A stretch of DNA of 37,929 bases from Candidatus Nanohaloarchaea archaeon (GCA_046497485.1 JAWOFP010000023.1:1-37929); one strand, 5' to 3'. Counted from the first letter of the stretch, positions 8,876 to 29,358 are shown. Numbers and translations are program-made. Notes: generated by a model from the letters alone, not told the origin.

Positions 8876-8877
8876 AT

Positions 8878-11703: not shown

Positions 11704-11829
11704 GTTATCAGCTTCTCGAATTAATTCTTCTAAGTTTTTTCCGGCGGTCAGAATTTTTTGGCCGGATCTAAGTCACTGTCAAATAACTCAACTGTTAATC
11801 ATAAATTACTAGGCTTTCGAGAAATTTTC

Positions 11830-13821: not shown

Positions 13822-13822
13822 A

Positions 13823-14467
13823 TTAAATTTTAGGCCTCTTAATCGACATCTCAAGGCCTTCTGAGTCCTTATCAGGATCTTCTGGGATACGCTCTAATTC
13901 AAATTCAGATCCAAGAGAAAGAACCATCGCATCAATTATATCATCCTCAGAGACATCTTTTCTTTCAAACTCTTCAATTATTGAGATATCTCCAAATCTC
14001 TTGAGAACTTCTTTCCTGTCTTTCAGTCCTCTCTCTGAGATTTTTGATTCTATAACTGAGTCTTTATGCAAGGATTTGAAAAATACTTCAGGATGCGACT
14101 CCTTCAGATTTCTTTTCTGAGCCTCTACATCGGCCTCTCTAATCTTTGGAACTATGTTCCAGGCCTGTTTTGAGATCCGCTTACCAGTCTTTTCCTCATT
14201 GATATCACAGGCCTGTTCATAGCTTTCCGCATAGACAGCATCCCTAACAGGACAGTTAAAGATCGAGTAATGTCTCTCAGGCGCTAAAAAGTCTCTTGCG
14301 TCTTCATCACACTTTCTGGTAGAGTCTTCAGGCAGCCCGATCGGAATATCTATCAAGGCCTGATTAAAATCTATTTCCGAAAGTTTTTCGTAAAACCCTA
14401 TCTTCCAAGCGTCTCCTGTGTATTCTGCTGTAATCCAGCCGTTTCTTGTTCCATCAATTCCTTTCAT
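13823..14467 (-). CDS. DUF429-family predicted nuclease (RNase H-like fold)
   Basis: GIDG, IDIPIGL, ESHPE and DDIIDA motifs. Confidence 0.8.
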   Translation of the reverse strand: MKGIDGTRNGWITAEYTGDAWKIGFYEKLSEIDFNQALIDIPIGLPEDSTRKCDEDARDFLAPERHYSIFNCPVRDAVYAESYEQACDINEEKTGKRISKQAWNIVPKIREADVEAQKRNLKESHPEVFFKSLHKDSVIESKISERGLKDRKEVLKRFGDISIIEEFERKDVSEDDIIDAMVLSLGSEFELERIPEDPDKDSEGLEMSIKRPKI

Positions 14468-14733
14468 CTTCTGAAAGTATAAGAGAAGTTATCCGATTTA
14501 ACCTCTATCTCTGAATCCCTGAAAATTATCTGATCTACTTTGGAAAATTCGTTTTCATGAAGAGGCATCGCTCCAGAGACCTCTCCATCCCTTTGGATCT
14601 TCAAATACTCTCCATTCCTAGAGTATTCGATCATTTCATCTCCTATCTCTACATTTTCTGATTTGAAATGACCTTTGAAGGCCTCTTGAACCTCTTTCCA
14701 TTCAGTTTCTAAATTCAAAGTCTGTTGTGACAT
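14464..14733 (-). CDS. Hypothetical protein (89 aa)
   Basis: Acidic ORF overlapping both neighbours (ATGA coupling to the DUF429 gene); start uncertain. Confidence 0.7.
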   Translation of the reverse strand: MSQQTLNLETEWKEVQEAFKGHFKSENVEIGDEMIEYSRNGEYLKIQRDGEVSGAMPLHENEFSKVDQIIFRDSEIEVKSDNFSYTFRR

Positions 14734-15133
14734 CAGTCTTCACCGAGTTATGAATGAAACAGTTTTTCTCAGTTGCCTGAGCTACTTTTTCTGCTTTTTC
14801 TCTATCGCTTACGCCCACTACCTCAAGATTAATTTCTGCTTCCTTCATAACAGGCCTCGAGTCCTTTCCTCGATCAAGAGTGACTTCGGCTCTTGATTCA
14901 ATTCGGTTGTATTCTAGATTCTTTCTCTCTGCTATCGTTTTGAAAGTCGCAATCATGCAGGTCTGCAGCGATGCAGAAAAGAGATCTTCAGGAGATGGGT
15001 TCTCACTGTCACCGCCGAATTCCTCCGGGACCGACATCTCAGTTTTCAGGCCTTCATCGGTCTCAAGTGGCCAACTTTTCTTTCCTTTTTCTGCTTTGGA
15101 TTCAGAACTGAACTTTACAGGATAATCTACCAT
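14702..15133 (-). CDS. OsmC/Ohr-family protein
   Basis: PEEFGG, SPEDLF...C and KNCFIHNS two-Cys pattern. Confidence 0.9.
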   Translation of the reverse strand: MVDYPVKFSSESKAEKGKKSWPLETDEGLKTEMSVPEEFGGDSENPSPEDLFSASLQTCMIATFKTIAERKNLEYNRIESRAEVTLDRGKDSRPVMKEAEINLEVVGVSDREKAEKVAQATEKNCFIHNSVKTDVTTDFEFRN

Positions 15134-15184
15134 ATGTAATTTTTTGATAGGGTATTGAAATCAGTAATTCTTCAACTTTGTCTT

Positions 15185-15634
15185 ATGGATGAACAGGTAA
15201 TTTTTGATTTAGATGGAACTCTTTCTGACAACAGGCATCGGGAACACCTGATTGAATGTGAGGATAAGAAGTGGAGAGAGTACCTGGCAAATTGTATAAA
15301 GGACTCACCAGTCCAGAAAATGGTTTCTAAATTAGATCAAATGTCTGGAGAATACGAAATAATAATTCTGACCTGTAGATCGGATGAAGTAGAGGAAGAA
15401 ACTATTGAATGGCTTGAAAAACATGATGTAAATTATGACAGGTTGATTATGTTGCCTGAAGGCCGCTGGGAGATTAAAGACTCTGAATTCAAGAGAGATG
15501 AACTCAGAACCATGGAAAATCCGGTCAAGGCATTTGATGACAAAAGATCAAACTGCAGGATGTTTCATGAAGAAGGATTAGAAACTTACGAGGTAGGAAA
15601 ACTGCCTAATCCAGAGTTAAGATTAATTCAGTGA
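15185..15634 (+). CDS. HAD-superfamily phosphatase (polynucleotide kinase/phosphatase 3'-phosphatase-like)
   Basis: IFDLDGTL, IILTCR, K and FDD HAD motifs; ATG at 15185. Confidence 0.8.
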   Translation: MDEQVIFDLDGTLSDNRHREHLIECEDKKWREYLANCIKDSPVQKMVSKLDQMSGEYEIIILTCRSDEVEEETIEWLEKHDVNYDRLIMLPEGRWEIKDSEFKRDELRTMENPVKAFDDKRSNCRMFHEEGLETYEVGKLPNPELRLIQ

Positions 15635-16980
15635 CCTAAAGCGTTTTCAAACATTTTCTTTCCTACATGATACCTCTGGTTGAAGTTGATGATCGGATCA
15701 GGATAATCGACACCGTATTCGTTTCTTTCTTCATGGACCATTTCAACCCAGTTGTGAATCGAGTTCGGATCCAAGTCCCTCAGCTCCGGTATATGTCTCT
15801 TGATGTACTCTGCATGAGTATCGTACTTTCTTCCCTGTTTCACAGGATTGAATATTCTGATGGATACGGAATCGGTTCCAGTAGAAGCAGACCATTGCCA
15901 GCCACCGATGTTTGATGCGGTATCATGATCGATCAGATGTTTTCTGAAGAATCTGGCTCCTTTCCGCCAGTCAATCATCAGATGCTTTGTCAGGAAAGAG
16001 GCAACATTCTGTCTTGTTCTGTTGTGCATGTAACCGGTATTTCTTAACTCTCTGATACCGGCATCAACGAACGGCACTCCTGTCTCTCCTTTTTTCCAGG
16101 CCTCGAACTCTTCAGGATCGTTTCTCCATTGGATCTCGTTTTCAAAATCCCTGTAATTTTGTTGAACTGTCTCAGGATTGTGCCAGAGCACCTGATAGAA
16201 GAACTCCCGCCAGGCTAACTCATTCCTGTACTTCGCATAGTTTCTGATATCATCGGAGCCATCTGATTCCTCAATAAGTCTTTCCACATCATCCAAAACT
16301 TTTCTCAGGCCTAAAATTCCGGAACTGTAATACATCGAAAGTCGGGAGACTGCCTCAGGACTCTTAACTTCATCTCTTTGATCCTTGTAAGTATCAAGTC
16401 TGTTATCTCTGAAGTCTCTCCATCTCTGCAGCGCTGATTCTTCTCCGGACTGCGGAAGATCGATACTACATTCAGTGCTCACCTCGAAGCTTTCTTCATC
16501 TATATCTGCCAGATTTTCAGGCCTTCCAAAGCTTGAATCTTTTTCTATATTCTTCCATTCTCTGTAGAAAGGAGAAAAAGTATCAAACTCTTCTGAGATT
16601 TCCTGTGGCTCGACAAGCAACCTATCCTTGAAACTTTGAGATTTTACATCAAGGCCTTTTATTTCTGATTCGATTCTGCGCTTGATCGGAGTATATGAGC
16701 GGTTGAAAAAGATTTTATCGATATCATGTCGATCAATGAGTTCTTCCAGATTTTCTCCAGTTTTCCCTTTTCTGTATACCAGTCCAGAACCTCTTTCCCT
16801 ATAATTTTTATCAATTATTTCCAGCGATTTCTCCCTGAAAGCCTTTTTGTTTTTCCCTGTCCTCTTTGAGATTCTGGGGTCATCTATGTAGATCGGTAAA
16901 GTTTCTCCATCCTCTGAGGATCTTTTGAGTCCTTTATTGTCATGTATTCGAAGATCGTCTCTGTGCAGGAATATATTCAT
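15628..16980 (-). CDS. phr: Deoxyribodipyrimidine (CPD) photolyase
   Basis: RDDLRIHDN, SRLS, ELAWREF, GETGVPFVDAG, GYMHNRTR, NIGGWQWSAS, RIFNP. Confidence 0.92.
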   Translation of the reverse strand: MNIFLHRDDLRIHDNKGLKRSSEDGETLPIYIDDPRISKRTGKNKKAFREKSLEIIDKNYRERGSGLVYRKGKTGENLEELIDRHDIDKIFFNRSYTPIKRRIESEIKGLDVKSQSFKDRLLVEPQEISEEFDTFSPFYREWKNIEKDSSFGRPENLADIDEESFEVSTECSIDLPQSGEESALQRWRDFRDNRLDTYKDQRDEVKSPEAVSRLSMYYSSGILGLRKVLDDVERLIEESDGSDDIRNYAKYRNELAWREFFYQVLWHNPETVQQNYRDFENEIQWRNDPEEFEAWKKGETGVPFVDAGIRELRNTGYMHNRTRQNVASFLTKHLMIDWRKGARFFRKHLIDHDTASNIGGWQWSASTGTDSVSIRIFNPVKQGRKYDTHAEYIKRHIPELRDLDPNSIHNWVEMVHEERNEYGVDYPDPIINFNQRYHVGKKMFENALGH

Positions 16981-18137
16981 TATCTGTACCTCTGTGTGAC
17001 TGTCATCACGGCTGTACTAATCGCAGCAAATATAAAGACTGCCTTAAAGGCCGACCTTTCCCCAAGAACAATTGCTACACCGATGAATAATGTGGCTGTA
17101 AGTATTTTTCCAAGGGAGTTAAACATCATTTTGGCGGTGTAGAAGCTTCTTTCCTCTACTGCCTCTGCCCGATCCGCGAAATCAGAGAAAAGAGGTATAT
17201 CGTACAACTTGAATGCCAGACCTCCTAGAATCGAAACAAGAAAGGCCTCTACAGGCGTTGTAACTGCGATCCTGAGTAGATAAGTTACTCCGGCTATGAA
17301 AGCTCCGACCGCGATGATACTGAATCTTGAATACTTTGATGCAATGTATCCTGAGAAGTAAGCCATCACCATAAAACCTAGCGTATCCATCGACCTGACC
17401 AGCCCTGATGCAAAATTCCCTGCGATGAAGATGTATGTGAAAAGAGAGAAAATCGCTACTGATGCATAGGCCTGAGCACCTCTGGAAAGAAAGACAGGAG
17501 AATAATGCAGGTTTTTACTGGTCAAGACTGATTTCAGGCCTAAATCTTTCTTCCTGGTCTTGATATTGATGTTTCTGGCAGGAATTAGTGAAATCAGTAT
17601 AGCACAAAGTGCTGTAAGAAGCATTGCGCTAAATCCTGCCCATGCACTCACTAGGCCTCCTATAGCCGGCCCAAAAAGCCTTCCAATGTTTGGCAAGGCA
17701 TTTAGATGGGCTGCCTGTATATCTCTATTATCTTTTTCTGAACCGCTAGCGAATTCCAGATCTTTGCTCTCTGTGTGAAAAGTAACTCCAATACTGTAGA
17801 GGACTGCTACCGCTGATACCAGTAAAAGATCTATTTCCAGAAGGTAGATGAGTAAAACTGACGGCAGGAGAAAGACATAGGAGGCAGAAAGGCCTGAACG
17901 GAAGCCATATCTGTTGATAATCTTCATCACTGGGTAGCTGACAATAAATCCTGTTAAGGCCTTCACGAGGAGATAGACGCCAGGAAGCATCAGGCTCTGA
18001 GTCTCTGAGTATATTAAAATCGGAATGAAGATTCCTAAAATGCTTAAGGCAAAGTTCTTGAAGAATTCGTACAATATTAGTTGGCCGAAGTCGCTGCCGT
18101 CAGTAAGAAATTTTGGTACATAAAGATTGATTTTCAA
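16980..18137 (-). CDS. MFS transporter
   Basis: About 12 hydrophobic segments; GPAIGG motif; its stop overlaps the photolyase start. Confidence 0.8.
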   Translation of the reverse strand: MKINLYVPKFLTDGSDFGQLILYEFFKNFALSILGIFIPILIYSETQSLMLPGVYLLVKALTGFIVSYPVMKIINRYGFRSGLSASYVFLLPSVLLIYLLEIDLLLVSAVAVLYSIGVTFHTESKDLEFASGSEKDNRDIQAAHLNALPNIGRLFGPAIGGLVSAWAGFSAMLLTALCAILISLIPARNINIKTRKKDLGLKSVLTSKNLHYSPVFLSRGAQAYASVAIFSLFTYIFIAGNFASGLVRSMDTLGFMVMAYFSGYIASKYSRFSIIAVGAFIAGVTYLLRIAVTTPVEAFLVSILGGLAFKLYDIPLFSDFADRAEAVEERSFYTAKMMFNSLGKILTATLFIGVAIVLGERSAFKAVFIFAAISTAVMTVTQRYR

Positions 18138-18171
18138 TAAAGAAAGATAAAATGAGAGATTTATTTATGTC

Positions 18172-18387
18172 CTAGGCCTCTCTATGTGTGAAAGTGTGTT
18201 CGACGGCTTCAGTAGGGAACTCTACTACCACGTATTCTCCGTCTTTCATCCCCTCTGTCCTTGCAACGCCTTGATCTACATCTACCTCTGAGGTATGCGT
18301 ATGCAGATCGTATTCTCTTCCACTTTCAAGTACGACCATGAGCTCTCCGGACTGTTCCAGCTTCGTCTTCAGTCTGTCTGCGTCCAT
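18172..18387 (-). CDS. Hypothetical protein (71 aa)
   Basis: Acidic, His-containing small ORF with ATG start filling the gap. Confidence 0.7.
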   Translation of the reverse strand: MDADRLKTKLEQSGELMVVLESGREYDLHTHTSEVDVDQGVARTEGMKDGEYVVVEFPTEAVEHTFTHREA

Positions 18388-18485
18388 AGAGAATTATTAC
18401 TTTCCTAGGTTCAAGTGCTTTTCCCCATAAGATTTACTTCTGAATCCATCAAACATGTTAAACTCTCTGTGAGTAAAATAAAGAT

Positions 18486-19028
18486 ATGAAAGATCATATA
18501 ATGGATTCAGATAAGGCTGAGATGCTGGAGGAAAAAGACCGTTACAAAATTCTATCCAGAGAGGAGATACTAGCCAATATAGAAGAAGGAGAAACAGTAG
18601 CAGATATAGGCTCAGGCACAGGATTTTTCACAGATGATATGGCGGAAAAAGCCGGAAAAGTATACGCAATAGATTTCCAGGAGGAAATGCATCAGTACTA
18701 TCGGGAGAAAGGCCTACCAGCTAATGTTGAATTGATACATTCAAAGGCCTCAGAAATCAAAATACGTGATATAGATACAGTATTCTCGATACTCTCACTT
18801 CATGAAATAAATCTGGAAAAATCCCTGGAAGCATTTGAAAAAGCCTTAAATGAAGAAGGAGGCCTTTTCATAGTTGACTGGAGTCAAAACGCAGAGACAG
18901 AAAACATCCCTCCAAGAGAAAAACTCTTTACTGCACAAGAGCCCTCAGAAAAGATCTCTGACTATTTCAAAGTAGAAAAATCAGTGGAAAGATACGACAC
19001 CTTCCGGATCAAGGCTTCCAACACTTAA
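18486..19028 (+). CDS. Class I SAM-dependent methyltransferase
   Basis: VADIGSGTGFF motif I, YAID, SLHEI, GGLFIVDW. Confidence 0.9.
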   Translation: MKDHIMDSDKAEMLEEKDRYKILSREEILANIEEGETVADIGSGTGFFTDDMAEKAGKVYAIDFQEEMHQYYREKGLPANVELIHSKASEIKIRDIDTVFSILSLHEINLEKSLEAFEKALNEEGGLFIVDWSQNAETENIPPREKLFTAQEPSEKISDYFKVEKSVERYDTFRIKASNT

Positions 19029-19039
19029 AGCAATTACCT

Positions 19040-19549
19040 TTAGGAATCAAGCTTTGAAGCTATAAGAATTGAATAAGTCTGAACAACCGCTATACCTGCT
19101 ATACCTATTATCTGAAGCGAAATTACTTCTGAATACAGGCCTAAAACAAATATCGCAAAGCCTACAACCGATTCCCCTCCAAGCTTCTCATAGAGGCCTG
19201 AATATTCGTCCATATACTTTGAAGAGTAATAAAGCGCTATTCCTGGAGCTAGGAACCAGTAAGCAAGGCTAGTGAAACTCAGAATCTGAGAGTAAGAGCT
19301 TACTGTGAAACTTAATGCTCCGAGACCTGTAAATAGTATTCCTGCTCCGATAACCTTTCTCCAGATGTCAAGGACTGGATTGGATTCCATTTCCTTCCAT
19401 GAAAGAACCGTGAATCCTGCCAGGAAAAGTATCATGAAATAATGCATATGCTGGATCCAGTAGGTACTAATTCGTGGATAGATTATGGTGGCGAAAGTCA
19501 TCGCCCATGCCGCTGGAATCAGGCCTATCGGTGCGTATTCACGGATCAT
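19040..19549 (-). CDS. Hypothetical membrane protein (about 6 TM)
   Basis: Hydrophobic ORF; no recognised catalytic motif. Confidence 0.75.
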   Translation of the reverse strand: MIREYAPIGLIPAAWAMTFATIIYPRISTYWIQHMHYFMILFLAGFTVLSWKEMESNPVLDIWRKVIGAGILFTGLGALSFTVSSYSQILSFTSLAYWFLAPGIALYYSSKYMDEYSGLYEKLGGESVVGFAIFVLGLYSEVISLQIIGIAGIAVVQTYSILIASKLDS

Positions 19550-19582
19550 AAAAATTTAGTATAGAAAAAGAGTTATACATTT

Positions 19583-20038
19583 TTATGCATTTTCAGTTCT
19601 GATTTCTTCCTTCAATTTCTTCATATCTGGTAGTTTAGAGGGATCATCCAGCCTTTCCTCATAGATTATTTCTCCATCCTTTACCAGAAATACTGCTCTG
19701 TTTGCAACTTCGTATTCGAGGCCAGGCATGACAATATTTACTCCATAATTTTCTGAGATCTCTTTCGAGCTATCGCTTACAAGTGTAAAATTCAAGTTAT
19801 TCTGTTCTGAGAACTCTTTCAATGCGAAAGGTGTATCGACGCTGATTCCAATAACGTCTACATCCATCTCATTGAATTCGCTCATCGAATCCCTAAATTT
19901 ACACATTTCCTCGGTACAGGTTCCAGTAAAAGCTCCTGGGAAGAAAGCCAGCACTGAAAGGCCTTCTCCATTGAAGGAAAATCTCTGGGTTTCGCCATTG
20001 TGATAAGCTGCTGATTCAAACTCTATTTGATCTACCAT
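19583..20038 (-). CDS. Peroxiredoxin (BCP/PrxQ-like)
   Basis: FFPGAFTGTCTEEMC (PxxxTxxC plus resolving Cys), GISVD, RAVFLV; ATG at 20038. Confidence 0.92.
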   Translation of the reverse strand: MVDQIEFESAAYHNGETQRFSFNGEGLSVLAFFPGAFTGTCTEEMCKFRDSMSEFNEMDVDVIGISVDTPFALKEFSEQNNLNFTLVSDSSKEISENYGVNIVMPGLEYEVANRAVFLVKDGEIIYEERLDDPSKLPDMKKLKEEIRTENA

Positions 20039-20073
20039 ATATCCTAATAGTAGGGGAACTTCTTTTAGTTTGA

Positions 20074-21357
20074 TCAATTCTTGAGATCTGACAGCTTGGC
20101 TGTTGCGAAAGGTACCAGCATTTCGGCTCTGCTCATTCCGCCGTGATGACCCTGATAGTCTCCGTATCCGCTGTGTTCCTCGTGATCATACCAGATCATC
20201 TGCTCCTCTTTTTCAGGTATTATTATCAGATTCCCCAGTCTTGAAGGATGACTTACCTCTCCAAGCCCAAAAAATTCTTTCTCCAGTGCCTCGGATTTGG
20301 TGTATATTTTTGCCTCCAACTTCTCTTCTAGGAAACTTTTTACCTCTTCTTGTGAACCCTCTTCCAGGTTCAGGAAAACTGTCCTCGGGCCTCCTGTGGG
20401 AAGTACGGGTTCTCCGTTTTCATATGTTCTAAGATTTTCTCTGACCTTTCCAAAGCTTAGAAGATCCACGATGCCCTCAGGATCTACATCTGCTTGACCG
20501 TGATCTGCAACAACCACTAACAAGGTTTTTTCCGCTTTTTCATTGCTTATCTTTTCCAGAAGTTGTTTCTGAAGAGCCTGTGAAACTGCCTCAAGTTGCG
20601 ATAAATGTTCCTCTGAATTCGGCCCGTATTCGTGAAGTGCCGAGTCAACCTGGTCGGTATAGCAGTGGAAGTAATTCAGCCCCTCCGAATTCTCAAGCTG
20701 TCTCCTTAATTTGAGCGCCATATCGAAAGCATTCGTGAAACCTTCCTGCTCTGCATCTTCCATCATCACGGAGTTGTATTCGCTTTCATGAACTCCTTCC
20801 GGCAGAATCGCTGTGGATCTGACTTCTCCAGCCTTGAGCCTCTCAAATATATTTTCGCCATCAAAGAGTACAGAAACGTCTACATCCCCATCTATCTCGC
20901 GCGGGTCCTCCTTATCCAGCGTGGTAAATGGCAGAGTCCTCAAGGTAACATCAAGACCCTCGAAAAACACTCTCCAAGAAAAAACACTGTGCTCCTGAGG
21001 AGTCAAACCTGTATTCATAGATGTAACTGCTGCAGATGTCTCGGAAGGAAAGACGGCCGTTAAAGGTGTAACTCTACCTTTATCAATCATATTGTCGAAG
21101 AAGTCTAATTCTCCTCCGTAATGCTTCCACTGATCGTATCCGAAGGCATCAACAAATACTAGAGCCACATTTTCAACCTCTTCCAAATCAATTCCTTCAA
21201 AAACGTCTTCGGGAAGCTCTCTATCTGGTTCAAGACCCAGAACGCTTTCAACAGTACCTGGAATTCTGGAAAAATTATAGTTTCTGTAATCAGGAGTCAC
21301 TAGATTCCTGAACTTTGACTTATCCAGTAGCTCTTCCTCAATCTCTTCTCTCAGCAT
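20074..21357 (-). CDS. Alkaline phosphatase superfamily protein (nucleotide pyrophosphatase/phosphodiesterase-like)
   Basis: VDAFG, FPSET, DSALHEYGP, ADHG, GHHGG metal-binding motifs. Confidence 0.88.
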   Translation of the reverse strand: MLREEIEEELLDKSKFRNLVTPDYRNYNFSRIPGTVESVLGLEPDRELPEDVFEGIDLEEVENVALVFVDAFGYDQWKHYGGELDFFDNMIDKGRVTPLTAVFPSETSAAVTSMNTGLTPQEHSVFSWRVFFEGLDVTLRTLPFTTLDKEDPREIDGDVDVSVLFDGENIFERLKAGEVRSTAILPEGVHESEYNSVMMEDAEQEGFTNAFDMALKLRRQLENSEGLNYFHCYTDQVDSALHEYGPNSEEHLSQLEAVSQALQKQLLEKISNEKAEKTLLVVVADHGQADVDPEGIVDLLSFGKVRENLRTYENGEPVLPTGGPRTVFLNLEEGSQEEVKSFLEEKLEAKIYTKSEALEKEFFGLGEVSHPSRLGNLIIIPEKEEQMIWYDHEEHSGYGDYQGHHGGMSRAEMLVPFATAKLSDLKN

Positions 21358-21404
21358 GTAATAACTATGTATGTTCTAAATTTAAATTTTCAAAGGAAGA
21401 TGGT

Positions 21405-22880
21405 CTAGCTCTGAAAATCCTTGAGATCTTTTTGACTGTCATCAGCTTTCTCCAGAATTTCCTCTCGATCATGCCGGGAACTCAAAGAAGCTTTCCTCCA
21501 GACCTCATCGTCTCTGAAAGATGCATAGGCCTTTGAGGCTTTGGAGTTGAAAAATTCTCTGGCTTTCCGGGCCTCTCTTTCATAGTTGACGATTGGTTCT
21601 GGATAATCTTTCCCGATAATTACGCCGCATTTCTTCTGGATTCTCTCCGGCATATTCCATGGCTCATCGATGAACTCATCCGGAACCGATTCCAGCTCCG
21701 AAACGTATTTTCTGATGAACTCTCCTTCCGGGTCGTTGTCCCTGACCTGTTTGGTCGGGTTGTAGACTCGGTTTGCGTGTACTCCTATCAAACCGGATTG
21801 CATCTGCCACTGGTAGTAATTAATCGCTACATCCGCATCAATTAGATGCTTGTAGAAGAAGTCAGCACCTTCCTTCCACCACTGCTTCAGAATATATGAG
21901 TAGAAACTGGCACACATCGCCCGCATACGAAAATTCAACCAACCGGTCTCAACTAGAGCTCTCATGGATGCATCGACCAGTGGATAACCGGTTTTGCCTT
22001 TTTTCCAGGCCTTAATTTTTTCCTCATTTCTCTTTTCCCTGTGAGGTTCTTCGTAAACAGGGTTAATCGCTTTTTCAAACAGTTCTGGGTTGTCCTCAAT
22101 TTTCTGGTTAAAGTGTTGCTGCCAGAAAACCCTGTCCAGAAACATCTCTATACTTCTCTGATTATTTCTTGAATCAGTTTCTTCCTTCACTCTCTGGTAG
22201 ACCTGACGGGGAGAGATACAGCCATATCGGATGTAAGGAGATAAGTGAGAGGTAGAGCTTTCAGCCTTGGAAGGTGAAGAGATACATCCGGAGTAATCAT
22301 CAATATTTTCGATAAACTTTTCCAGCCTCTTTTCCGCCTCGAAGCTCCCACCTTTACCAAAACCTTCTTTTCCAGGGCTGATACTGTATCTTTCCCTGAT
22401 CTCATCTAATGAGGTATTACCGTCCAAATTATTCTCATTGAGTGATTCAGGCCTTTCATATTGTTTTGATTCGAACCAGTATTTGGCATTGTTAGCCCAT
22501 TTTTCAGGCCTCCCACTTTTTCTGGAAATTACTGTGTTTCCGTTCACTGGAGTAAATTTCTCCCTTAGCTTCCTCTCTTTTTCCTGGAAAAAGTGATTGG
22601 CGTCTTTATTGAAGATAACTTTGTGGTTATCAGATTTCAGTCTGGTAAGGATATCAACAGGCTCTCGATAGAAAAGCGTAAGTTCAGTACCTAACCGTAT
22701 ATATTGACGATTCAAGTCCTTCAAGGATTCAAGCACAAACTCTTTTCTTGCATCCAGCGAAAGCTCGTGATTCCATTCTTCGGGGTCAAAGATATAGATC
22801 GGAGCCGCTTTTTCACCTGCAGCTTCTAAGGCCTTGTTGTCCTGCGTTCTGAGGTCTCTGCGGTGAAAGACGATGTTCAT
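21405..22880 (-). CDS. Photolyase/cryptochrome family FAD-binding protein (second subfamily)
   Basis: RRDLRTQDN, SHLSPYI, TGYPLVDASMR, WLNFRMRAM, QWQMQSG, RVYNP. Confidence 0.9.
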   Translation of the reverse strand: MNIVFHRRDLRTQDNKALEAAGEKAAPIYIFDPEEWNHELSLDARKEFVLESLKDLNRQYIRLGTELTLFYREPVDILTRLKSDNHKVIFNKDANHFFQEKERKLREKFTPVNGNTVISRKSGRPEKWANNAKYWFESKQYERPESLNENNLDGNTSLDEIRERYSISPGKEGFGKGGSFEAEKRLEKFIENIDDYSGCISSPSKAESSTSHLSPYIRYGCISPRQVYQRVKEETDSRNNQRSIEMFLDRVFWQQHFNQKIEDNPELFEKAINPVYEEPHREKRNEEKIKAWKKGKTGYPLVDASMRALVETGWLNFRMRAMCASFYSYILKQWWKEGADFFYKHLIDADVAINYYQWQMQSGLIGVHANRVYNPTKQVRDNDPEGEFIRKYVSELESVPDEFIDEPWNMPERIQKKCGVIIGKDYPEPIVNYEREARKAREFFNSKASKAYASFRDDEVWRKASLSSRHDREEILEKADDSQKDLKDFQS

Positions 22881-22940
22881 TATCTATATCTAATTTGAGG
22901 TTGAAGAATCTTAATAGGATTAAGGCTTCCATTTTAAATT

Positions 22941-23723
22941 ATGGAAATTGATAACTCAGAGGAAAGAATCAGGAATATCCATCGAGACTTGATTGAAGTA
23001 TATGGAAAACAGGATAATCATGACCATGAAGACGGCGTCAGACAGCTTTTAATCACAATACTTTCGCAGAATGTGGCCGACACCAATACTGCCAGAGCCG
23101 CGGAAAACTTATTCAATGATTTCAAAAATTATAAAGAAATTGAACAGGCCTCAGTAGAAAACTTAGCAGACTCTATCAATCCAGCAGGATTGCCAGAAAC
23201 GAAGGCGAAAAGAATTCAGAGAACTCTGAAGGCCTTGAGAGAATACGAAAATCGAAGATTTTCTGGATCACCAGAAAATTCTTCCAAAGAATTTTCGAAT
23301 GATGGAGAAGAGGAGAGTTCTGAAGATTACAGCGTCGATTTCCTCGGCGAGATGGAGGATTCAGATGCTCAGGCCTGGCTTGAAGAGATCAAAGGAATCG
23401 GGCCAAAGACGGCCAGTGTTTTACTCAACTTCCATTTTGATGCGAATGTGATGCCAGTCGATACTCATGTAGAGAGGATAGCAAAACGGTTCAGGCTGAT
23501 TCCTTTCTCAGCTTCGAATGGAAAAGCACATGAGCTTTTGAATGAGGCCGTCCCGCACGATATCAAAAACAGCTTCCACATGCTGCTGATTGAACACGGT
23601 AAAAATAACTGCGCCGCACGGAATCCAACCTGCGAGGAGACAAAGCTGAAAAAATACTGCTCAAGATACGAACTGGTGGAGAACGGCGATTTGAGTCCTG
23701 AAGAGTATCCTCCGGAGGCCTAA
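22941..23723 (+). CDS. nth: Endonuclease III (HhH-GPD glycosylase) with an in-frame insertion
   Basis: ILSQN, GIGPKTA (catalytic Lys), PVDTHV (catalytic Asp); degenerate C-terminal Cys motif. Confidence 0.88.
   Translation: MEIDNSEERIRNIHRDLIEVYGKQDNHDHEDGVRQLLITILSQNVADTNTARAAENLFNDFKNYKEIEQASVENLADSINPAGLPETKAKRIQRTLKALREYENRRFSGSPENSSKEFSNDGEEESSEDYSVDFLGEMEDSDAQAWLEEIKGIGPKTASVLLNFHFDANVMPVDTHVERIAKRFRLIPFSASNGKAHELLNEAVPHDIKNSFHMLLIEHGKNNCAARNPTCEETKLKKYCSRYELVENGDLSPEEYPPEA
23246..23297. repeat. Compound palindromic element inside nth
   Basis: Terminal inverted repeat CGAAAAT/ATTTTCG enclosing hairpins GAAAATC-GAA-GATTTTC, ATTTTCTGG-ATCA-CCAGAAAAT and GAAAATTCTT-CCA-AAGAATTTTC. Confidence 0.75.
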
Positions 23724-23726
23724 AAA

Positions 23727-24338
23727 GTGAACTTCGAAGAACTAGTCGAAAAAAGAAGATCATATAAGGAATTCAAAGACAAAGACGTTGAGATAGAAAA
23801 ACTTCAGAAAATATTTGAACTGACAACTGAAGCTCCGACAGCCTTCAATCTTCAGGCCTACAGCTTCAAGGTTTTAGACTCCGAGGAGGCGATTAAAGCC
23901 GCAGTTGAATCGACTGTGCCTGGAAATGAATGGGTCGGAGATGCAGACAAAATCGTCTTACTTGTGGGGGATGAGAGAATTGATACTAACCTAGATAAAG
24001 TACTAGAGGATATGCTGGAAAAAGATTATCTGGATGAGGAAACCGCTGAAGAATACAGGGAGAGGATCTCAGGATACGGCGACAGAGACAAACTTTTCAA
24101 GACCGGCTGGCTGAACAGAAACACTATGATACCGGCCACATTCTTCATGCTCGCATGCGAAGACCAAGGCCTCGGAACCTGCCCGGTAAGAGGATTCTCC
24201 AACGAAAAAATATCGGAAAGCCTGGAACTGGAGGAATGGGAGAGGCCCGGCCTGATGCTCCCGATTGGCTACCCTGAAGAAGATGAAAGGCCTCAGAAAT
24301 GGCGGAGGAAAGGGAAAGAGGTTTTCGAAGTAATCTAG
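23727..24338 (+). CDS. Nitroreductase family protein
   Basis: RRSYKEF, APTAFNLQ, GLGTCPVRGF, IGYP; GTG start 3 nt after nth. Confidence 0.92.
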   Translation: MNFEELVEKRRSYKEFKDKDVEIEKLQKIFELTTEAPTAFNLQAYSFKVLDSEEAIKAAVESTVPGNEWVGDADKIVLLVGDERIDTNLDKVLEDMLEKDYLDEETAEEYRERISGYGDRDKLFKTGWLNRNTMIPATFFMLACEDQGLGTCPVRGFSNEKISESLELEEWERPGLMLPIGYPEEDERPQKWRRKGKEVFEVI

Positions 24339-24444: not shown

Positions 24445-24876
24445 TTAACTGATTTCGAGGTTGAGGTCAGCTTCATGCTGGAAGTTGTCGCTTACAGGGC
24501 ATCGTCCTTCAGCTTCCCCCATTATTTCTCTTTCTGTCTCTTCATCCGCATCTGTCTCTATTCTTGCCTCTACGTTGGCCTCCTGGAATCCTGCTCTCTC
24601 GTCTTCACCCATGAAGCCGGCCATGTCTAGCTCTCCTTCGACATCAATCTCCAGAGACTTAATTTCTACGCCGTGTTCCTTTGCGACCTGATGCGCGGTT
24701 ACATTCATGCAGGAGGCCAGTGCCGTGAACATGTACTCGAGAGGATTCGGTGCCTTATCGTTCCCTCCAAAGCCCTCTGGTTCATCGACCTTCAAACTGT
24801 GGCCTCTGACCTCTACATCAAGTTCTGTGTGGTTTTGAGCTTCTGATTCAATTTTGATCGGTAGTTTATCTGCCAT
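24445..24876 (-). CDS. OsmC-family protein
   Basis: DEPEGFGGNDKAPNPLEY...LASC and RCPVSD; SD AGGTGA. Confidence 0.92.
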   Translation of the reverse strand: MADKLPIKIESEAQNHTELDVEVRGHSLKVDEPEGFGGNDKAPNPLEYMFTALASCMNVTAHQVAKEHGVEIKSLEIDVEGELDMAGFMGEDERAGFQEANVEARIETDADEETEREIMGEAEGRCPVSDNFQHEADLNLEIS

Positions 24877-24891
24877 GGTTTCACCTAGTAC

Positions 24892-25377
24892 TTATTCGAG
24901 CGGGGTTTTACAGCTTTGCTCCAGGCATTCATCGATTTTAGATTCGATCTCATTGCCTATCTCCTCGTTGTAGCCGGACCAGTGTTCATCACCGATGAAA
25001 GTGCCGGGAACACCTCTTGCAGCGACCCCGTACTTCTCCGCCACGTTCTGATAGATCTTCTGGTTTTCCCTGCTGTTGTAGACCTCGTACATCTTGACCT
25101 CCAGATCTTCGTGTTCTCTGTCCAGTTCCTCGAGGAATGGCTTTTCCCTTTCACAGTAAGAACATCCCGCCCCCCAGAAAAAGTAGACTGTGGTCCTGTT
25201 CCCTGTCTCGGGCAGAAGCACTTCAGAGTTATCTGGTTCCGAATTTTTCGCCGCCTTTTCGGGACCTGTTCCGTTTTGAGGGTTTTGTACGACTTTAAAC
25301 GCAAGGCCTGTAACCAGCAGGACTGCTAGAAGGCCTAAACCGATTTTCCTGTAATTTTCCTTAATTTTCTGTTTCAC
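24892..25377 (-). CDS. Membrane-anchored thioredoxin/glutaredoxin-like protein
   Basis: N-terminal TM helix, FFWGAGCSYC (CxxC), GVP cis-Pro loop. Confidence 0.88.
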   Translation of the reverse strand: MKQKIKENYRKIGLGLLAVLLVTGLAFKVVQNPQNGTGPEKAAKNSEPDNSEVLLPETGNRTTVYFFWGAGCSYCEREKPFLEELDREHEDLEVKMYEVYNSRENQKIYQNVAEKYGVAARGVPGTFIGDEHWSGYNEEIGNEIESKIDECLEQSCKTPLE

Positions 25378-25383
25378 CGCGTA

Positions 25384-25764
25384 TCAAATCTCGTTTTCAT
25401 AGTACTGTTTTGCATCTTTTTCTGTTAGAAACTTTCCTTCGAAACTTTCTTGAGGCCTGATCTTGACTAGCCAGGCCTCGTAGGGATCTTCAATGATTTT
25501 CCTGGGTTTTTCTCCCACCTCTCTGTTCACATCGACGATCTCAGCATCTACAGGTGTTTTAAGTTCTCCGACGCGTTTCATAGCCTCGTACTCTATCAGA
25601 ATTCCTCCTTCCTCAAACTTCTCTCCTTTCTCCGGCAGTTCGATGAAGAGAAATTCCTCTGCTTTCTCTGCACAGGGTTTTGCCAGGCCTACCTTGTAAT
25701 TTTTTCCATCTTTCTTGAGCCAGAGACTGTTTTCGGTGTATTTTCTGTCCTCCGGTAGATTCAC
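25384..25764 (-). CDS. gcvH: Glycine cleavage H-like lipoyl carrier protein
   Basis: PEDRKYT, VGL, FIELP, EAMK (lipoyl-Lys position), EIVDVN, DPYEAWLVKI; divergent, and no other gcv genes in the window. Confidence 0.85.
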   Translation of the reverse strand: MNLPEDRKYTENSLWLKKDGKNYKVGLAKPCAEKAEEFLFIELPEKGEKFEEGGILIEYEAMKRVGELKTPVDAEIVDVNREVGEKPRKIIEDPYEAWLVKIRPQESFEGKFLTEKDAKQYYENEI

Positions 25765-26711
25765 TCGTCTTCACCTCCCATCTTTCTGTAAATGTAGGCG
25801 ATTGCTCCCGAAAGTATTAGGGCTGAGCCGAAGACGTAGATCGTTCCTGAGAGAGTTTCCATCAGTTCCGGCCTGATTATCAGGGTTGCTGCGAGTGCGA
25901 TCATTATCATTCCGCCGAGAAGTTTGAGGTAACGGCCGTGTTTTTCCTCAAACCTGGTCTTTTCCATCGTATAGGTTATTCCAAGGAAGACCGCCAGCTC
26001 GTCCAAAAGATAGATCAGCATGTAGAGACCTAACAAAACGAGCGCGAATCCTGTCTGGACTCCTCTATCCGCCAGTATATTGCTGTAGATCAATGGGAAT
26101 CCTGCGGTACACGGTAGTTCAACCAGGACTATACCTGCAGCGATTACAGCCGTCCCGAACAGAGTCATCGCCAAACTATCTTTTCTGACTGTCTCAGAGA
26201 GCTCTCTGGCAATCTTCGGCTTGAAGCGGTCCGGTATCGTAAATGACAGGCCTCGATTCCAGTAAAAGAAGTCCTTTACGTTGACAGCGCCGAACACCAG
26301 TGCTACTGCCGCGACTGCAACCTTTATCCACATCAGATGCGACACGTATGAGAAGATGTTGATCAATCCGTAGACAAAGGCTCCGTAGCCGATAGAGGTC
26401 ACGGTCAGAAAAGTAAAGCCTACCGCGGCCGTCTTCTTTCTTGAACCTGAGTGAACGACCAGTCCAAGCAGAAAGGTCAGGACCCACAAAGAGCAAGGAT
26501 TGAAGCCGTCCACCAAAGCAATCATAGCGGTCAAAGCCACCAGAGGCGTATCTTTAGTACTGATTTCTCCGATCAACGGCAGCTCCAAGCTTTCCTGCTG
26601 AAGTTCCGAAGTATCGCTCTGTGCAGCTTTTGGCGAAGTATTCTGAGCCGCTGTTACACCCGATAACAGGATGAAGGATATGGCTATCGCTGCAGACAGT
26701 GCTTTCTTCAT
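25761..26711 (-). CDS. CcdA/DsbD-like transmembrane electron-transfer protein
   Basis: Signal-like N-terminus, multiple TMs, two intramembrane Cys motifs DGFNPC and ELPCTAG. Confidence 0.82.
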   Translation of the reverse strand: MKKALSAAIAISFILLSGVTAAQNTSPKAAQSDTSELQQESLELPLIGEISTKDTPLVALTAMIALVDGFNPCSLWVLTFLLGLVVHSGSRKKTAAVGFTFLTVTSIGYGAFVYGLINIFSYVSHLMWIKVAVAAVALVFGAVNVKDFFYWNRGLSFTIPDRFKPKIARELSETVRKDSLAMTLFGTAVIAAGIVLVELPCTAGFPLIYSNILADRGVQTGFALVLLGLYMLIYLLDELAVFLGITYTMEKTRFEEKHGRYLKLLGGMIMIALAATLIIRPELMETLSGTIYVFGSALILSGAIAYIYRKMGGEDE

Positions 26712-26725
26712 AATTCCTCAAGGCC

Positions 26726-26762
26726 TGAAACGGTTTATATACCCTTGTTTCACGATGTGAAA
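26726..26762 (-). promoter_or_regulatory. TATA box with flanking inverted repeats (candidate promoter/operator)
   Basis: TATATAAA on the minus strand (26741-26734); TGAAAC-N15-GTTTCA around it; TTTCAC-GAT-GTGAAA just upstream. Confidence 0.5.
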
Positions 26763-26788
26763 TAACTGGTCCAGAGGCCTTCTGCAAA

Positions 26789-27289
26789 TTAGAGGAGTAT
26801 GTCCTCAAATTTTTCCTCCAGAACCACTTTATTGGTCATGCCGTTTTCCTCCCTGTGGATGATCTTCTGCCGTTCAAGATCTTTCAGTTTTCTGGAAACC
26901 TTCACCTTGGACAGGCCTGTTTCATCTGGAAGTTCGCTCTGACTGATTTCACCGCCCCTTTCAATCAGGGCCTCAACTATCTTTCTCTGATCCCCTGGTA
27001 GAAAACGGATCGTCTCACGCACTTCTTCAGGAGATATCGATTCAGGTATGATAGATTTCTTCATGTAGATGTAAACCGCCATACCAACGATCACACCGGT
27101 AGTCGACATCAAAGCCACGATCCAGGTAAGGGGAAGTGTACAGTTACAGACAGGTGCGGAAACCAGTCCATGCGCATAGTAAAAACCCGCCGTAGACAGA
27201 AGGATATACACGAAGACAAAAGAGATCACCTTGACATTGCTGTGAAGAAACCGTTCAACATCAATTGCTCTCAAACCTTTTTCCTCCAT
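26789..27289 (-). CDS. Membrane-anchored helix-turn-helix transcriptional regulator
   Basis: Two TMs flanking a CNC loop; C-terminal winged HTH (QSELPDETGLSKVKVSRKLKDLE...GMTNKV). Confidence 0.85.
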   Translation of the reverse strand: MEEKGLRAIDVERFLHSNVKVISFVFVYILLSTAGFYYAHGLVSAPVCNCTLPLTWIVALMSTTGVIVGMAVYIYMKKSIIPESISPEEVRETIRFLPGDQRKIVEALIERGGEISQSELPDETGLSKVKVSRKLKDLERQKIIHREENGMTNKVVLEEKFEDILL

Positions 27290-27401: not shown

Positions 27402-27914
27402 TTACAACGTTTCTTTTTCTATGAATCCCTCTAGAACTCTTCCATCGTACTGGTCAACCCCTTCACCTGGCTCAAAAATAGCTGATCCTACAGGAATGCT
27501 TTTGTCTTCATCGTAAACCTGGATATAAAGGTCTTCATCACCCTCATACCGAAGTGAGTTGTTTTCTAGTTCATAGTTCCAGAGCGTATCTTCCTCACTG
27601 CCGTATTTTACCGCTTTTATGCTTTGGGTGCCTTCCGCATCGTCACTGATCACCAGTTCATCCCCATCATAATTAAATTCAACTTCATCAATCTCCTCGG
27701 TATTGGAACGATCACTAACATAATCCAGAGCATCCTTACCAGGAGAATCGTTATCTTGAACTGCCGTAGCCGTAACTCCTGCGGCGCCTGCTCCCAGCCC
27801 TATGACATATTTTCTTCGTGTCAAAGCACGTGTATTCCCGGTAAATTCATCTCCACCGGAACCAAGCACTGAATCCACAAGAGACTGCAAAGTCACATTC
27901 CATCTGTAGAGCAT
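27402..27914 (-). CDS. Hypothetical exported protein with twin-arginine-like motif
   Basis: TRRKYVIGLGAGAAG followed by an acidic domain; start may be the GTG at 27896. Confidence 0.65.
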   Translation of the reverse strand: MLYRWNVTLQSLVDSVLGSGGDEFTGNTRALTRRKYVIGLGAGAAGVTATAVQDNDSPGKDALDYVSDRSNTEEIDEVEFNYDGDELVISDDAEGTQSIKAVKYGSEEDTLWNYELENNSLRYEGDEDLYIQVYDEDKSIPVGSAIFEPGEGVDQYDGRVLEGFIEKETL

Positions 27915-27936: not shown

Positions 27937-29358
27937 TTATTCCAAGCCCTCAAAATCAAGACTCCGTTTAAATTCTCGGGCCTCCTCAACATGTTCTTCA
28001 ACAGTTTCCTCATTCATCCGGTTTAAAGTAGATTTCATGAAGCTCATTCTGTGAATATCTGAGATCTTCTCTTCGTATTCCTTGATGAAGTTCCAGTAGA
28101 GTCCATCCCAGCTTTCTTCCCAGTCACCACTATCGTAGTGACTCATCTTGTTGATGTAGTTTGAGGATGAGATGTATGGTTTGGTCATCATGTCGGGCCA
28201 GGAGTACTGTCCCATTCCGTAGACGTTCGGTACCATCACCCATTCATAGCTGTCGATGAACATCTCCATGAACCAGTCATAGACTTCTTCAGGATCGATC
28301 TCCAGCAACAACATTGTATTGCTCAAAACCATCAACCGTTCGATGTGATGACAGTAAGCATTGTCCTCAGCGTGCTGAATCGCGTAGTCTACTGGCGGAA
28401 GGCCTGTCTCAGCTGTGTAAAATTCTTCTGGTAGTTCGTTTTCCGCGTCCCAGAAATTTTCATTTCTCATATCCGGATGAATCTGGTACATTGCTCTGAT
28501 AAATTCTCTCCAGCCTACGATCTGTCGGAGAAAGCCTTCCAGTGAGTTCATCGGATAATCATGTTCTTCATGCGCTTCCAGAGTTTTTTCGACTACTTCT
28601 TCTGGATTCAAAAGGCCTATATTCATTGAAGAGGAAAGCAAGGAGTGGAAGCCGAACTCTAGATCTTTCTCAAAAGCGTCCTGATAATCGCCGAAGTTTT
28701 CCATCCTATTTTCTAAAAAGTCGTGGAGCATCTCCAAGGCCTGTTCCCGGGTGGTCGGCCAGAAAAAGTTCTCGAGATTCCCGGGATTGTCGGAGAAGTT
28801 TTCCTCAACCCATTCCTTTGCTTCTTCTACATATTCACTGGAAAATTCAGGTATATCAGGAGTCTCCATATCTTCAGGCATCTTCTTCCTGTTTTCTGGG
28901 TCGAAGCTCCATTTACCTCCTTCAGGCCCGTCTTCCGCCATCAAAATGTCGTGTTTCTTCCTCATCTCCTTGTAATAGCCCAGCTGGAAAATTTTGTTCT
29001 CATCAAAATAATCTCTATTATACTTCCTTGAGGCCAGAAAGTTAGGCGACTCCAGAACCTTTAATTCAACATTATTTTCATCTGCAAGGCCTCTAAACTC
29101 CTCTAAAATCTCATGATCGACAGGGTCAAAAATAGTAACTTCATCTTCTTCCTTGAAAACCTCTTCATAATCTTCCTCTAGTTGCACATAATCGGTATTA
29201 TTTCTTTCGCTGTAGGCCTGCATTGAGGATTTGTGAAGCAGTAATTTCTGTTTATGGAAATTCTTGTCGGTGAACAATTTTGGATGCTCGATTAGCGTTA
29301 CTTCACTTTCTGGAAGTTTTTCTTCAGGGAATAACTGGTTTGGGAGCAGAAGAATCAT
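27937..29358 (-). CDS. Prokaryotic (6-4) photolyase / CryPro (FeS-BCP) family protein
   Basis: HKQKL, GGKWSFDPENRK, FHSLLS, EGFLRQIVGWREF, HHIERLM, KPYISSSNYINKMS. Confidence 0.9.
   Translation of the reverse strand: MILLLPNQLFPEEKLPESEVTLIEHPKLFTDKNFHKQKLLLHKSSMQAYSERNNTDYVQLEEDYEEVFKEEDEVTIFDPVDHEILEEFRGLADENNVELKVLESPNFLASRKYNRDYFDENKIFQLGYYKEMRKKHDILMAEDGPEGGKWSFDPENRKKMPEDMETPDIPEFSSEYVEEAKEWVEENFSDNPGNLENFFWPTTREQALEMLHDFLENRMENFGDYQDAFEKDLEFGFHSLLSSSMNIGLLNPEEVVEKTLEAHEEHDYPMNSLEGFLRQIVGWREFIRAMYQIHPDMRNENFWDAENELPEEFYTAETGLPPVDYAIQHAEDNAYCHHIERLMVLSNTMLLLEIDPEEVYDWFMEMFIDSYEWVMVPNVYGMGQYSWPDMMTKPYISSSNYINKMSHYDSGDWEESWDGLYWNFIKEYEEKISDIHRMSFMKSTLNRMNEETVEEHVEEAREFKRSLDFEGLE

Follow-up and report, generated by a model that had tools for sequence, protein, structure and literature searches.

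A nanohaloarchaeal operon in which an orphan H-protein may serve as dithiol carrier for an OsmC-family peroxidase and a membrane thiol relay

A glycine cleavage-type H-protein (GcvH) is encoded in the middle of a five-gene operon of a nanohaloarchaeon, between genes for a membrane protein and an exported thioredoxin-fold protein, and the question raised by this locus is what a lipoyl carrier might do in such company. The operon occupies positions 24445 to 27289 of a 37,929-nucleotide (nt) stretch of DNA from a Candidatus Nanohaloarchaea archaeon (GCA_046497485.1, JAWOFP010000023.1:1-37929), the whole of which is referred to here as the window. The window is contig C12 of a Nanohaloarchaeota assembly of 967,558 bases in 66 contigs that is 97% complete. 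An earlier note, made from the sequence of the window, had proposed that an orphan H-protein acts as a dithiol carrier linking OsmC to a transmembrane disulfide relay under a redox- or metal-sensing regulator. The analysis described below leads us to a similar model, for and against which we find the balance about even: the orphan GcvH may be a cytoplasmic dithiol carrier that re-reduces OsmC and likely also the operon membrane protein (MEM), which in turn would supply the exported thioredoxin-fold protein (TRX).

Organization of the operon

The operon consists of five co-oriented open reading frames (ORFs) on the minus strand, with a candidate control region between the first two, as follows.

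26789-27289, minus strand: HTH, membrane-anchored winged-helix regulator, 166 amino acids (aa), DUF7343
26727-26762, minus strand: candidate control elements (operator and promoter) for the MEM-GcvH-TRX-OsmC unit, from sequence and conserved layout
25761-26711, minus strand: MEM, signal peptide and seven predicted transmembrane (TM) helices with two invariant Cys, 316 aa, no Pfam family
25384-25764, minus strand: GcvH, orphan lipoyl carrier with a GTG start, 126 aa, PF01597
24892-25377, minus strand: TRX, exported, membrane-anchored thioredoxin/glutaredoxin fold, 161 aa, Redoxin
24445-24876, minus strand: OsmC, cytoplasmic OsmC/Ohr-family predicted thiol peroxidase, 143 aa, PF02566

The junctions are exactly those described in the earlier note: MEM and GcvH overlap by 4 nt (GTGA), and gaps of 6 and 15 nt separate GcvH from TRX and TRX from OsmC; HTH and MEM are 77 nt apart. 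By hydropathy count, HTH has two hydrophobic segments, TRX one at its N terminus, MEM several, and GcvH and OsmC none. Cysteines occur in pairs in HTH (C48/C50), MEM (C73/C201), TRX (C72/C75 and C151/C156), and OsmC (C56/C126), and the sole unpaired Cys of the operon is one unconserved Cys in GcvH.

GcvH is an orphan with respect to glycine cleavage and is probably lipoylated

GcvH matched PF01597 at 82.1 bits (cut-off, 22.2) and fell under the NCBIfam GcvH cut-offs (NF002270, 90.2 versus 117 bits; TIGR00527, 73.9 versus 115.85 bits). The lipoyl lysine is kept, as had been claimed: K63 (codon 25576-25578) aligns with the lipoyl Lys of the solved H-proteins 1onl and 3a8i and, like E60, is invariant in 12 of 12 relatives (alignment A2). 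No other full-length H-protein is encoded in the genome. Neither GcvP (PF02347) nor GcvT (PF01571) was matched in the window or anywhere else in the 97%-complete assembly, and none of 70 genomes from the phylum gave a GcvP match; because no GcvP or GcvT was found in the genome, GcvH is an orphan with respect to glycine cleavage. The earlier note had recorded no P-, T-, or L-protein genes in the window and had entertained the possibility of a complete glycine cleavage system that uses this GcvH. The former observation holds, and for P and T it extends to the whole genome, so no such system was found there; an L protein is encoded elsewhere in the genome. The idea that GcvH is a glycine-cleavage remnant was likewise rejected, the P and T proteins not having been found.

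Both lipoate ligase and lpdA, for which the earlier note had suggested looking, are present in the genome. Contig C4 carries LplA, which scored 279 bits against LplAB, together with LplB and another LplA-like gene, and contig C38 carries an E1-alpha/E1-beta/E2/LpdA operon for a 2-oxoacid dehydrogenase, the LpdA of which scored 495.9 bits (cut-off, 408.8). LipA was not found in the genome, which implies lipoate salvage. A second Lpd-like flavoprotein (450 aa), encoded by a stand-alone gene on contig C64, scored 376.7 bits against the LpdA cut-off of 408.8 and 563.8 bits against NF004946 (cut-off, 634) and is a candidate GcvH reductase. Judged from these genes, the organism should be able to salvage lipoate and to reduce lipoyl groups, and the operon GcvH is probably lipoylated.

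Two features of the C64 flavoprotein may be recorded here. Its gene lies two genes from that for a 109-aa CxxC thioredoxin-like protein (C64:5716-8097; locus L006), and Lpd-like proteins of the same type (about 360 to 400 bits to TIGR01350) occur in many genomes of the phylum. On C38, at 3516-4031, some 3.4 kb upstream of the operon for the dehydrogenase and LpdA, is a gene that resembles methionine sulfoxide reductase A by N-terminal sequence.

A word-based homologue search with GcvH returned 14 proteins, all of them close relatives or ordinary GcvH, and a scan of genome contigs with the same protein returned only an alphaproteobacterial GcvH (L043; 46% identity over 45 residues), which is uninformative on context. 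The predicted complex of MEM (residues 50 to 316, alignment A1) with GcvH (A2) had a score of 0.00, which is evidence neither way.

H-proteins that work with OsmC, or outside glycine cleavage, have been described. According to excerpts of PMC5384416, the activity of TvOsmC in Trichomonas may require the L protein and a lipoylated H protein, and an H/OsmC/L peroxide-reducing system of Trichomonas vaginalis hydrogenosomes is cited in excerpts of both PMC5384416 and bioRxiv 10.64898/2026.10.01.755906. A similar peroxidase pairing is proposed, again in an excerpt, for Hyphomicrobium GcvH_1/OsmC, and an excerpt of PMC12440151 states that Staphylococcus aureus GcvH-L promotes oxidative-stress resistance via salvaged lipoate. 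In an excerpt of one paper on Nanohaloarchaeota, LipS1/S2 are given as absent. Titles and abstracts of literature on CcdA with GcvH, or on GcvH in DPANN archaea, contained no link between GcvH and a CcdA-like relay. To this extent the statement in the earlier note that no system with this gene set has been described still stands for the GcvH-CcdA link, but the H/OsmC/L part had already been described.

MEM is a putative distant member of the DsbD/CcdA superfamily

MEM had been called CcdA-like in the earlier note. No Pfam family matched MEM, even at E ≤ 10, and DsbD_TM (PF02683) had no match in the genome at E ≤ 1. The evidence for kinship is instead transitive. Proteins of 236 aa from other nanohaloarchaea match MEM at E values of 1e-17 to 1e-22; all four of those tested matched SfLAP (37 to 43 bits; cut-off, 35), and one of the four matched DsbD_TM above the cut-off (27.9 versus 27.1 bits), the other three scoring 21 to 24 bits. 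Protein-atlas neighbors of MEM also carry SfLAP/DsbD_TM families, which we treat as a lead only. Because the best evidence runs through these 236-aa intermediates, MEM is described here, from sequence comparison, as an apparent distant member of the DsbD/CcdA superfamily and not as a CcdA. The earlier designation is thus retained by way of intermediate homologues and not through a direct Pfam match to CcdA or DsbD_TM.

Among the 24 sequences of alignment A1, D68-G-F-N-P-C-S74 and E198-L-(P)-C-T-(A)-G204 are the invariant motifs of MEM; within them, N71-P72-C73 and C201 are invariant, P200 is nearly so, and C73 and C201 are the only cysteines of MEM. The cytoplasmic loops are strongly conserved in A1, and in most members a CxxC glutaredoxin/thioredoxin (Grx/Trx) domain follows the signal peptide and precedes the first helix, which places it outside the cell. 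Loop charges fit a predicted N-out, C-in topology. Many of the 1962 MEM homologues scored are labeled at source as CcdA/glutaredoxin fusions, and labeled fusions from Woesearchaeota, Nanoarchaeota, and Patescibacteria are approximately 45 to 57% identical; the close homologues bear the label Nanohaloarchaeota. An internal comparison of MEM with hhalign revealed only a four-residue NPCS/LPCT match (E, 0.34), the two halves sharing only xPC(S/T).

In the AlphaFold model of MEM (pLDDT, 74.9; pTM, 0.69), seven long helices follow the signal peptide, with breaks at C73 and C201. Foldseek returned nothing at E ≤ 0.001 with this model, and CcdA (5vkv) appeared at rank 30 with the top probability (0.84) and TM-score (0.47). 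VIA-align of MEM with 5vkv, a nuclear magnetic resonance (NMR) structure of CcdA, gave a Z score of 7.6 and an rmsd of 4.3 over 190 of 224 residues, at rank 10 and tied with unrelated LeuT-type transporters. When the A1 profile was compared with PDB sequences, only its Grx/Trx domain was matched, and no membrane protein.

MEM resembles CcdA (solved structure, 5VKV), DsbD, and ScsB in that two broken helices carry one essential-looking Cys apiece (xPC motifs) and in its pairing with, or fusion to, an outward thioredoxin fold. It differs from them in having no direct DsbD_TM match and seven predicted TM helices, where CcdA has six, and in that the next gene encodes a lipoyl carrier. A role in cytochrome c biogenesis was considered and rejected, since a search of the genome for genes of cytochrome c assembly found none; CcmF/CcsA/ResC (PF01578) had no match in it. 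To our knowledge, thioredoxin is always the electron donor in characterized DsbD/CcdA-type relays.

TRX and OsmC

TRX matched Redoxin (28.3 bits) and Glutaredoxin (22.8 bits); among solved structures, E. coli Grx1, StoA, and ResA are closest to it. Behind an N-terminal hydrophobic segment (residues 9 to 27) it carries the motif C72-SY-C75 and the second pair, C151/C156. The same domain, which is fused to the outward N terminus in MEM homologues, is present in the window as a separate anchored protein. OsmC matched PF02566 at 77 bits and the OsmC-related (seleno)protein family NF041052 at 92.4 bits (cut-off, 95). Its C56 and C126 align with the cysteines of OhrB (2bjo), and both are kept in the orthologue from species genome G044.

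Conservation of the operon within Nanohaloarchaeota

The arrangement was compared among species genomes of the phylum (designated by G and a number; fetched loci or contigs are designated by L and a number). Adjacency to GcvH in species genomes was counted within Nanohaloarchaeota; the phylum of G060 held one genome, without a match. MEM was matched in 35 of 61 genomes, and high-identity orthologues were present only in G045 (74%) and G044 (76%), members of two further families within the order. Each of these genomes has the same five genes in the same order, with identities to the window proteins of 51% and 47% for GcvH, 51% for TRX (G045), and 58% for OsmC (G044). Since the order recurs in two other species genomes, it did not arise by chance; nor is the gene set confined to the window's genome, a point that the earlier note had singled out, for it is found in three species genomes including this one. 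In none of the four genomes of the same genus (68 to 92% complete) was the operon found. In five other genomes a more distant MEM is fused to a Trx domain, and HTH precedes it in three.

Full-length H-proteins (PF01597) occur in 4 of the 70 genomes of the phylum, three of them inside this operon. The fourth, which looks canonical (140.9 bits), is encoded in G056 on a short, high-GC contig (C129; L044) beside biotin carboxylase, and the contig is probably foreign. The remaining PF01597 matches are lipoyl-domain matches of about 35 residues in frames of approximately 200 to 1000 aa, are of the E2 type, and occur in more than 30 of the 70 genomes. Lpd was detected in 66 of 70 genomes (E ≤ 1e-60) and LplA in 55; G044 has both Lpd types. 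Beside the regulator gene of G044 (L015:3036-3491) is a gene that resembles methionine sulfoxide reductase B by N-terminal sequence.

Lateral transfer of the operon has evidence on both sides. In its favor, MEM is 76% and 74% identical to its counterparts in G044 and G045 versus 45% and 43% for GluRS, the GC content is raised at 24 to 27 kb (0.47 to 0.48 versus about 0.36 to 0.45 elsewhere in the window), and the operon was not found in the four genomes of the same genus. On the other hand, GcvH, TRX, and OsmC are, at the identities given above, no more alike than expected, and the MEM family is slow-evolving.

MEM-family neighborhoods in metagenomes

A metagenome scan with A1 yielded 80 loci, of which 61 have at least 400 nt after MEM and were assessable. 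A Trx/Grx-like match was present in 75 of the 80, nearly always in the MEM frame and N-terminal, past the signal peptide. GcvH directly follows MEM in 3 of the 61 (L074; L076, which is cut by the contig end; and L080), and L076 also has the CxC regulator. In L074 (479-6056) and L080 (1005-5991), a Trx-fused MEM is followed by GcvH and then by a Grx-like protein (L074) or an AhpD-like CMD protein (L080), the latter in the place of OsmC. Next come a CoA-disulfide-reductase-like flavoprotein, a bona fide LipA (383 bits; cut-off, 203), LplA, and an LplA C-domain. Each of these two loci is a self-contained operon, a lipoyl-carrier system that has its own cofactor enzymes beside a membrane relay. 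No OsmC or AhpD-like gene was present in the 7.8 kb fetched for L074, so that the thiol partners observed in this locus are limited to MEM and the Trx/Grx domains. The window TRX is most like the separate exported Grx-like protein that follows GcvH in L074 (E, 5e-28), which indicates that the order MEM-GcvH-TRX is shared. The GC content of L074 and L080 is 27 to 28%, and the neighbors in L080 look archaeal; by their sequences, the GcvH-linked contigs seem to be diverged and of the DPANN type.

A quick tree of 88 MEM domains, built by maximum likelihood, placed six GcvH-linked rows in a basal grade together with the other HTH-linked, archaeal-type rows, and a clade of 72 MEM rows held no GcvH-linked row; when labels were shuffled 500 times, no shuffle gave clustering as strong. 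Recurrent neighbors in the large, mostly bacterial-looking MEM clade, and also in L073 and L075, are regulators of the ArsR type (8 loci), small Trx_3-like proteins, and permeases resembling ACR3 (as at L073, L075, L077, L101, and other loci), which for that branch of the family points to a setting of arsenic or thiol stress.

A membrane-anchored regulator and its candidate operator

HTH matched DUF7343 (46.7 bits; cut-off, 27.6) and MarR_2 (28.2 bits), and its homologue in L076 matched DUF7343 at 42.6 bits. The CxC loop between two TM segments, noted earlier, was borne out: C48 and C50 are the only cysteines and lie at the turn between the two hydrophobic segments, and the layout TM1-CxC-TM2-winged helix-turn-helix (wHTH) is kept in eight of nine aligned HTH homologues that adjoin MEM genes, L077 having a longer Cys-containing loop. 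Because the wHTH must be cytoplasmic, the CxC would lie at the outer turn of the hairpin. ToxR and CadC are likewise membrane-tethered, DNA-binding one-component regulators, and an outward Cys could report the external thiol state. HTH differs from them in having an unrelated fold (the archaeal DUF7343 wHTH) and a two-TM hairpin with CxC at the turn in place of a periplasmic domain.

Upstream of MEM are a palindrome, TTTCAC-ATC-GTGAAAC (26747-26762), a TATA box, TATATAAA (26734-26741), which starts 30 nt before the MEM ATG, and a third half-site, GTTTC (26727-26731). The conserved form of the palindrome is GTTTCA-N5-TGAAAC. The same layout of palindrome, TATA box, and half-site is present upstream of MEM in G045, G044, G019, G041, L076, and L078, and the TGAAAC, TATA, and TTTC columns are invariant in alignment A3 (6 loci); in G038 the HTH and MEM genes overlap and leave no spacer. 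The exact palindrome occurs once in the window. The relaxed core TTTCA-N5-TGAAA occurs nine times in the genome versus about two in shuffled sequence, and at only one of these nine sites, that upstream of MEM, are all three elements found together. A second palindrome-like site in the window (14461-14477) overlaps the start codon of a DUF429 gene, does not have the TATA layout, and was judged to be due to chance. HTH is inferred to bind the palindrome, which is a candidate operator, and a site placed around the TATA box in this way suits a repressor.

A model for the operon

In the model that we favor, LplA/LplB would ligate scavenged lipoate onto K63, and electrons from NADH would pass via Lpd to lipoyl-GcvH. 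As in the Trichomonas L/H/OsmC system, on which this step is modeled, dihydrolipoyl-GcvH would reduce the disulfide that OsmC forms after hydroperoxide reduction. It would likely also reduce C73/C201 of MEM, and MEM would pass the electrons outward to the anchored TRX, which would repair oxidized surface thiols. The regulator may sense oxidation or metal binding at its outward CxC and may control the promoter by way of the palindrome and half-site on either side of the TATA box. The operon is accordingly described as a likely lipoate-driven defense against oxidative damage inside and outside the cell. Of the linkage drawn in the earlier note, the orphan state of GcvH stands and the pairing of H-protein with OsmC has precedent; the feeding of the MEM relay by GcvH, which we consider likely and which is the new part of the model, is argued for by gene order only. 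A more general proposal is put forward tentatively, as one that is possible but on balance doubtful: that in DPANN archaea a stand-alone lipoylated H-protein, and not thioredoxin, is the dedicated cytoplasmic donor of a DsbD-superfamily membrane reductase, so that lipoate, either scavenged or produced by LipA/LplA encoded in the operon, powers both surface thiol repair and peroxide removal in a pathway switched by the CxC regulator, which would read the thiol state outside the cell.

The L/H/OsmC peroxide-reducing system of T. vaginalis hydrogenosomes, reportedly described by Nyvltova et al. in 2016, resembles the operon in that an H-protein without P or T protein is combined with an OsmC/Ohr-family peroxidase and with Lpd in the same genome. 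The operon differs in adding a CcdA-like protein, an exported thioredoxin, and a membrane regulator, its Lpd genes are on other contigs, and it is known here from genes. Protein-bound dihydrolipoyl groups also reduce a thiol peroxidase or its adaptor in the Mycobacterium tuberculosis chain, which runs from Lpd through DlaT (a lipoyl E2) and AhpD to AhpC, and in the lipoyl-dependent Ohr that Cussiol et al. are said to have described in 2010; the AhpD-like CMD protein of L080 may be compared. Unlike the M. tuberculosis chain, the operon has a stand-alone H-protein as carrier instead of an E2 lipoyl domain and has a membrane relay attached. S. aureus GcvH-L is similar to the operon GcvH in being a GcvH paralogue outside glycine cleavage. 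The staphylococcal GcvH-L operon includes genes for LplA2, a macrodomain protein, and a sirtuin, all three absent from the window, and is not known to include an OsmC or CcdA-like gene.

If the model is true, a lipoyl-protein donor would be a new entry of reducing power into the cell envelope, and it would explain the puzzling GcvH, LipA, and LplA genes of ultra-small archaea that have no glycine cleavage. The operon would be a candidate peroxide and surface-thiol defense for nanohaloarchaea of bright, oxic brines. Hardly any regulators are known from this phylum, and the candidate operator and CxC regulator offer a regulatory unit that is simple and open to testing. Should the H/OsmC half alone prove right, the operon would be an ordinary prokaryotic counterpart of the Trichomonas system.

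Alternative explanations

Several observations weigh against the model. Fifty-eight of the 61 assessable MEM-family loci have no adjacent GcvH, which indicates that the MEM family as a whole does not need GcvH, and in other nanohaloarchaea HTH and MEM-TRX fusions occur with no GcvH or OsmC in the 3.3 to 3.7 kb fetched. The MEM tree allows a single origin of the linkage to GcvH, in which case the GcvH-linked loci are not independent. The membership of MEM in the CcdA group rests on intermediates and on a fold match tied with other folds. MEM could also be fed in the conventional way, since the genome encodes thioredoxin (97.9 bits) and a TrxR-like protein, the latter scoring 260 bits and so falling under the equivalog cut-off. 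Finally, G045 has the operon, yet no Lpd (E ≤ 1e-60), LplA, or other lipoyl domain was found in this 88%-complete genome; its only full flavoprotein disulfide reductase is a TrxR-like protein of 314 aa, a second being cut by a contig end. The missing Lpd and LplA may be an assembly gap. If the absence is real, GcvH of G045 would have no known means of being lipoylated or reduced, and the lipoyl model fails in that species as stated.

The thioredoxin and TrxR-like genes, the MEM loci without GcvH, and the HTH and MEM-TRX pairs that stand alone all favor a reading in which two modules share one regulator, GcvH serving OsmC only and Trx/TrxR feeding MEM and TRX, with an operon shared through oxidative stress; H/OsmC pairing has, moreover, a precedent without a membrane partner. 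What weighs against this reading is that GcvH sits between MEM and TRX, with the 4-nt overlap, in an order kept in G044, G045, and L074, and that L074 combines MEM, GcvH, a Grx-like protein, a reductase, LipA, and LplA in a fetched stretch that holds neither OsmC nor an AhpD-like gene. We regard it as rather unlikely, though a serious competitor. A defense against metals or metalloids (arsenite, copper, or mercury), in which the CxC would bind a thiophilic metal and the lipoyl carrier, OsmC-fold protein, and relay would protect or repair dithiols, was also considered. The ArsR-type regulator is the commonest family among MEM neighbors (8 of 80 loci), Trx_3-like and ACR3-like proteins recur there, and L077 has ArsR and an ACR3-like gene beside MEM-Trx; HTH itself has a weak match to the ArsR/SmtB profile (27.7 bits). 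That match is far under the cut-off of 55, however, the ArsR-linked loci belong to the large MEM clade with no link to GcvH, and in the window no ars, cop, or mer gene adjoins the operon, the neighbors of which are instead concerned with the repair of UV and oxidative damage. A metal function thus seems improbable to us.

Least probable of all, and in our estimation hardly to be expected, is that GcvH is an intermediate in relaying lipoyl groups to E2, by a route of the Bacillus/Staphylococcus type. In favor of such a route, the genome encodes an E2 and two catalytic paralogues of the LplA type, and LipA was not found in it. But a full-length GcvH is missing from 66 of the phylum's 70 genomes, while E2-type lipoyl matches occur in more than 30 and LplA in 55; since GcvH is rare where LplA and E2-type lipoyl domains are common, lipoylation of E2 in this phylum needs no GcvH. 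Moreover, GcvH is grouped in the operon with redox genes and not with ligases. The model of GcvH as dithiol carrier for OsmC, and likely for MEM, is the one that we retain at the even balance stated at the outset.

Genes surrounding the operon

The operon is surrounded by a dense block of genes for UV and oxidative damage (window positions 7178-24338 and 27937-29358), which includes the following neighbors.

7178-13821: UvrC, UvrA, and UvrB
14702-15133: second OsmC-family gene, 26% identical to the operon OsmC
15628-16980 and 21405-22880: two photolyases
19583-20077: peroxiredoxin
22941-23723: endonuclease III
23727-24338: nitroreductase
27937-29358: photolyase-related DPRP protein

Just upstream of the regulator gene, at 27402-27914 on the minus strand, an additional ORF encodes a protein that was not seen at the G044 and G045 loci and has no family match. 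It is a very acidic protein of 170 aa with a twin-arginine-like N terminus, in which TRRKY is followed by a hydrophobic stretch.

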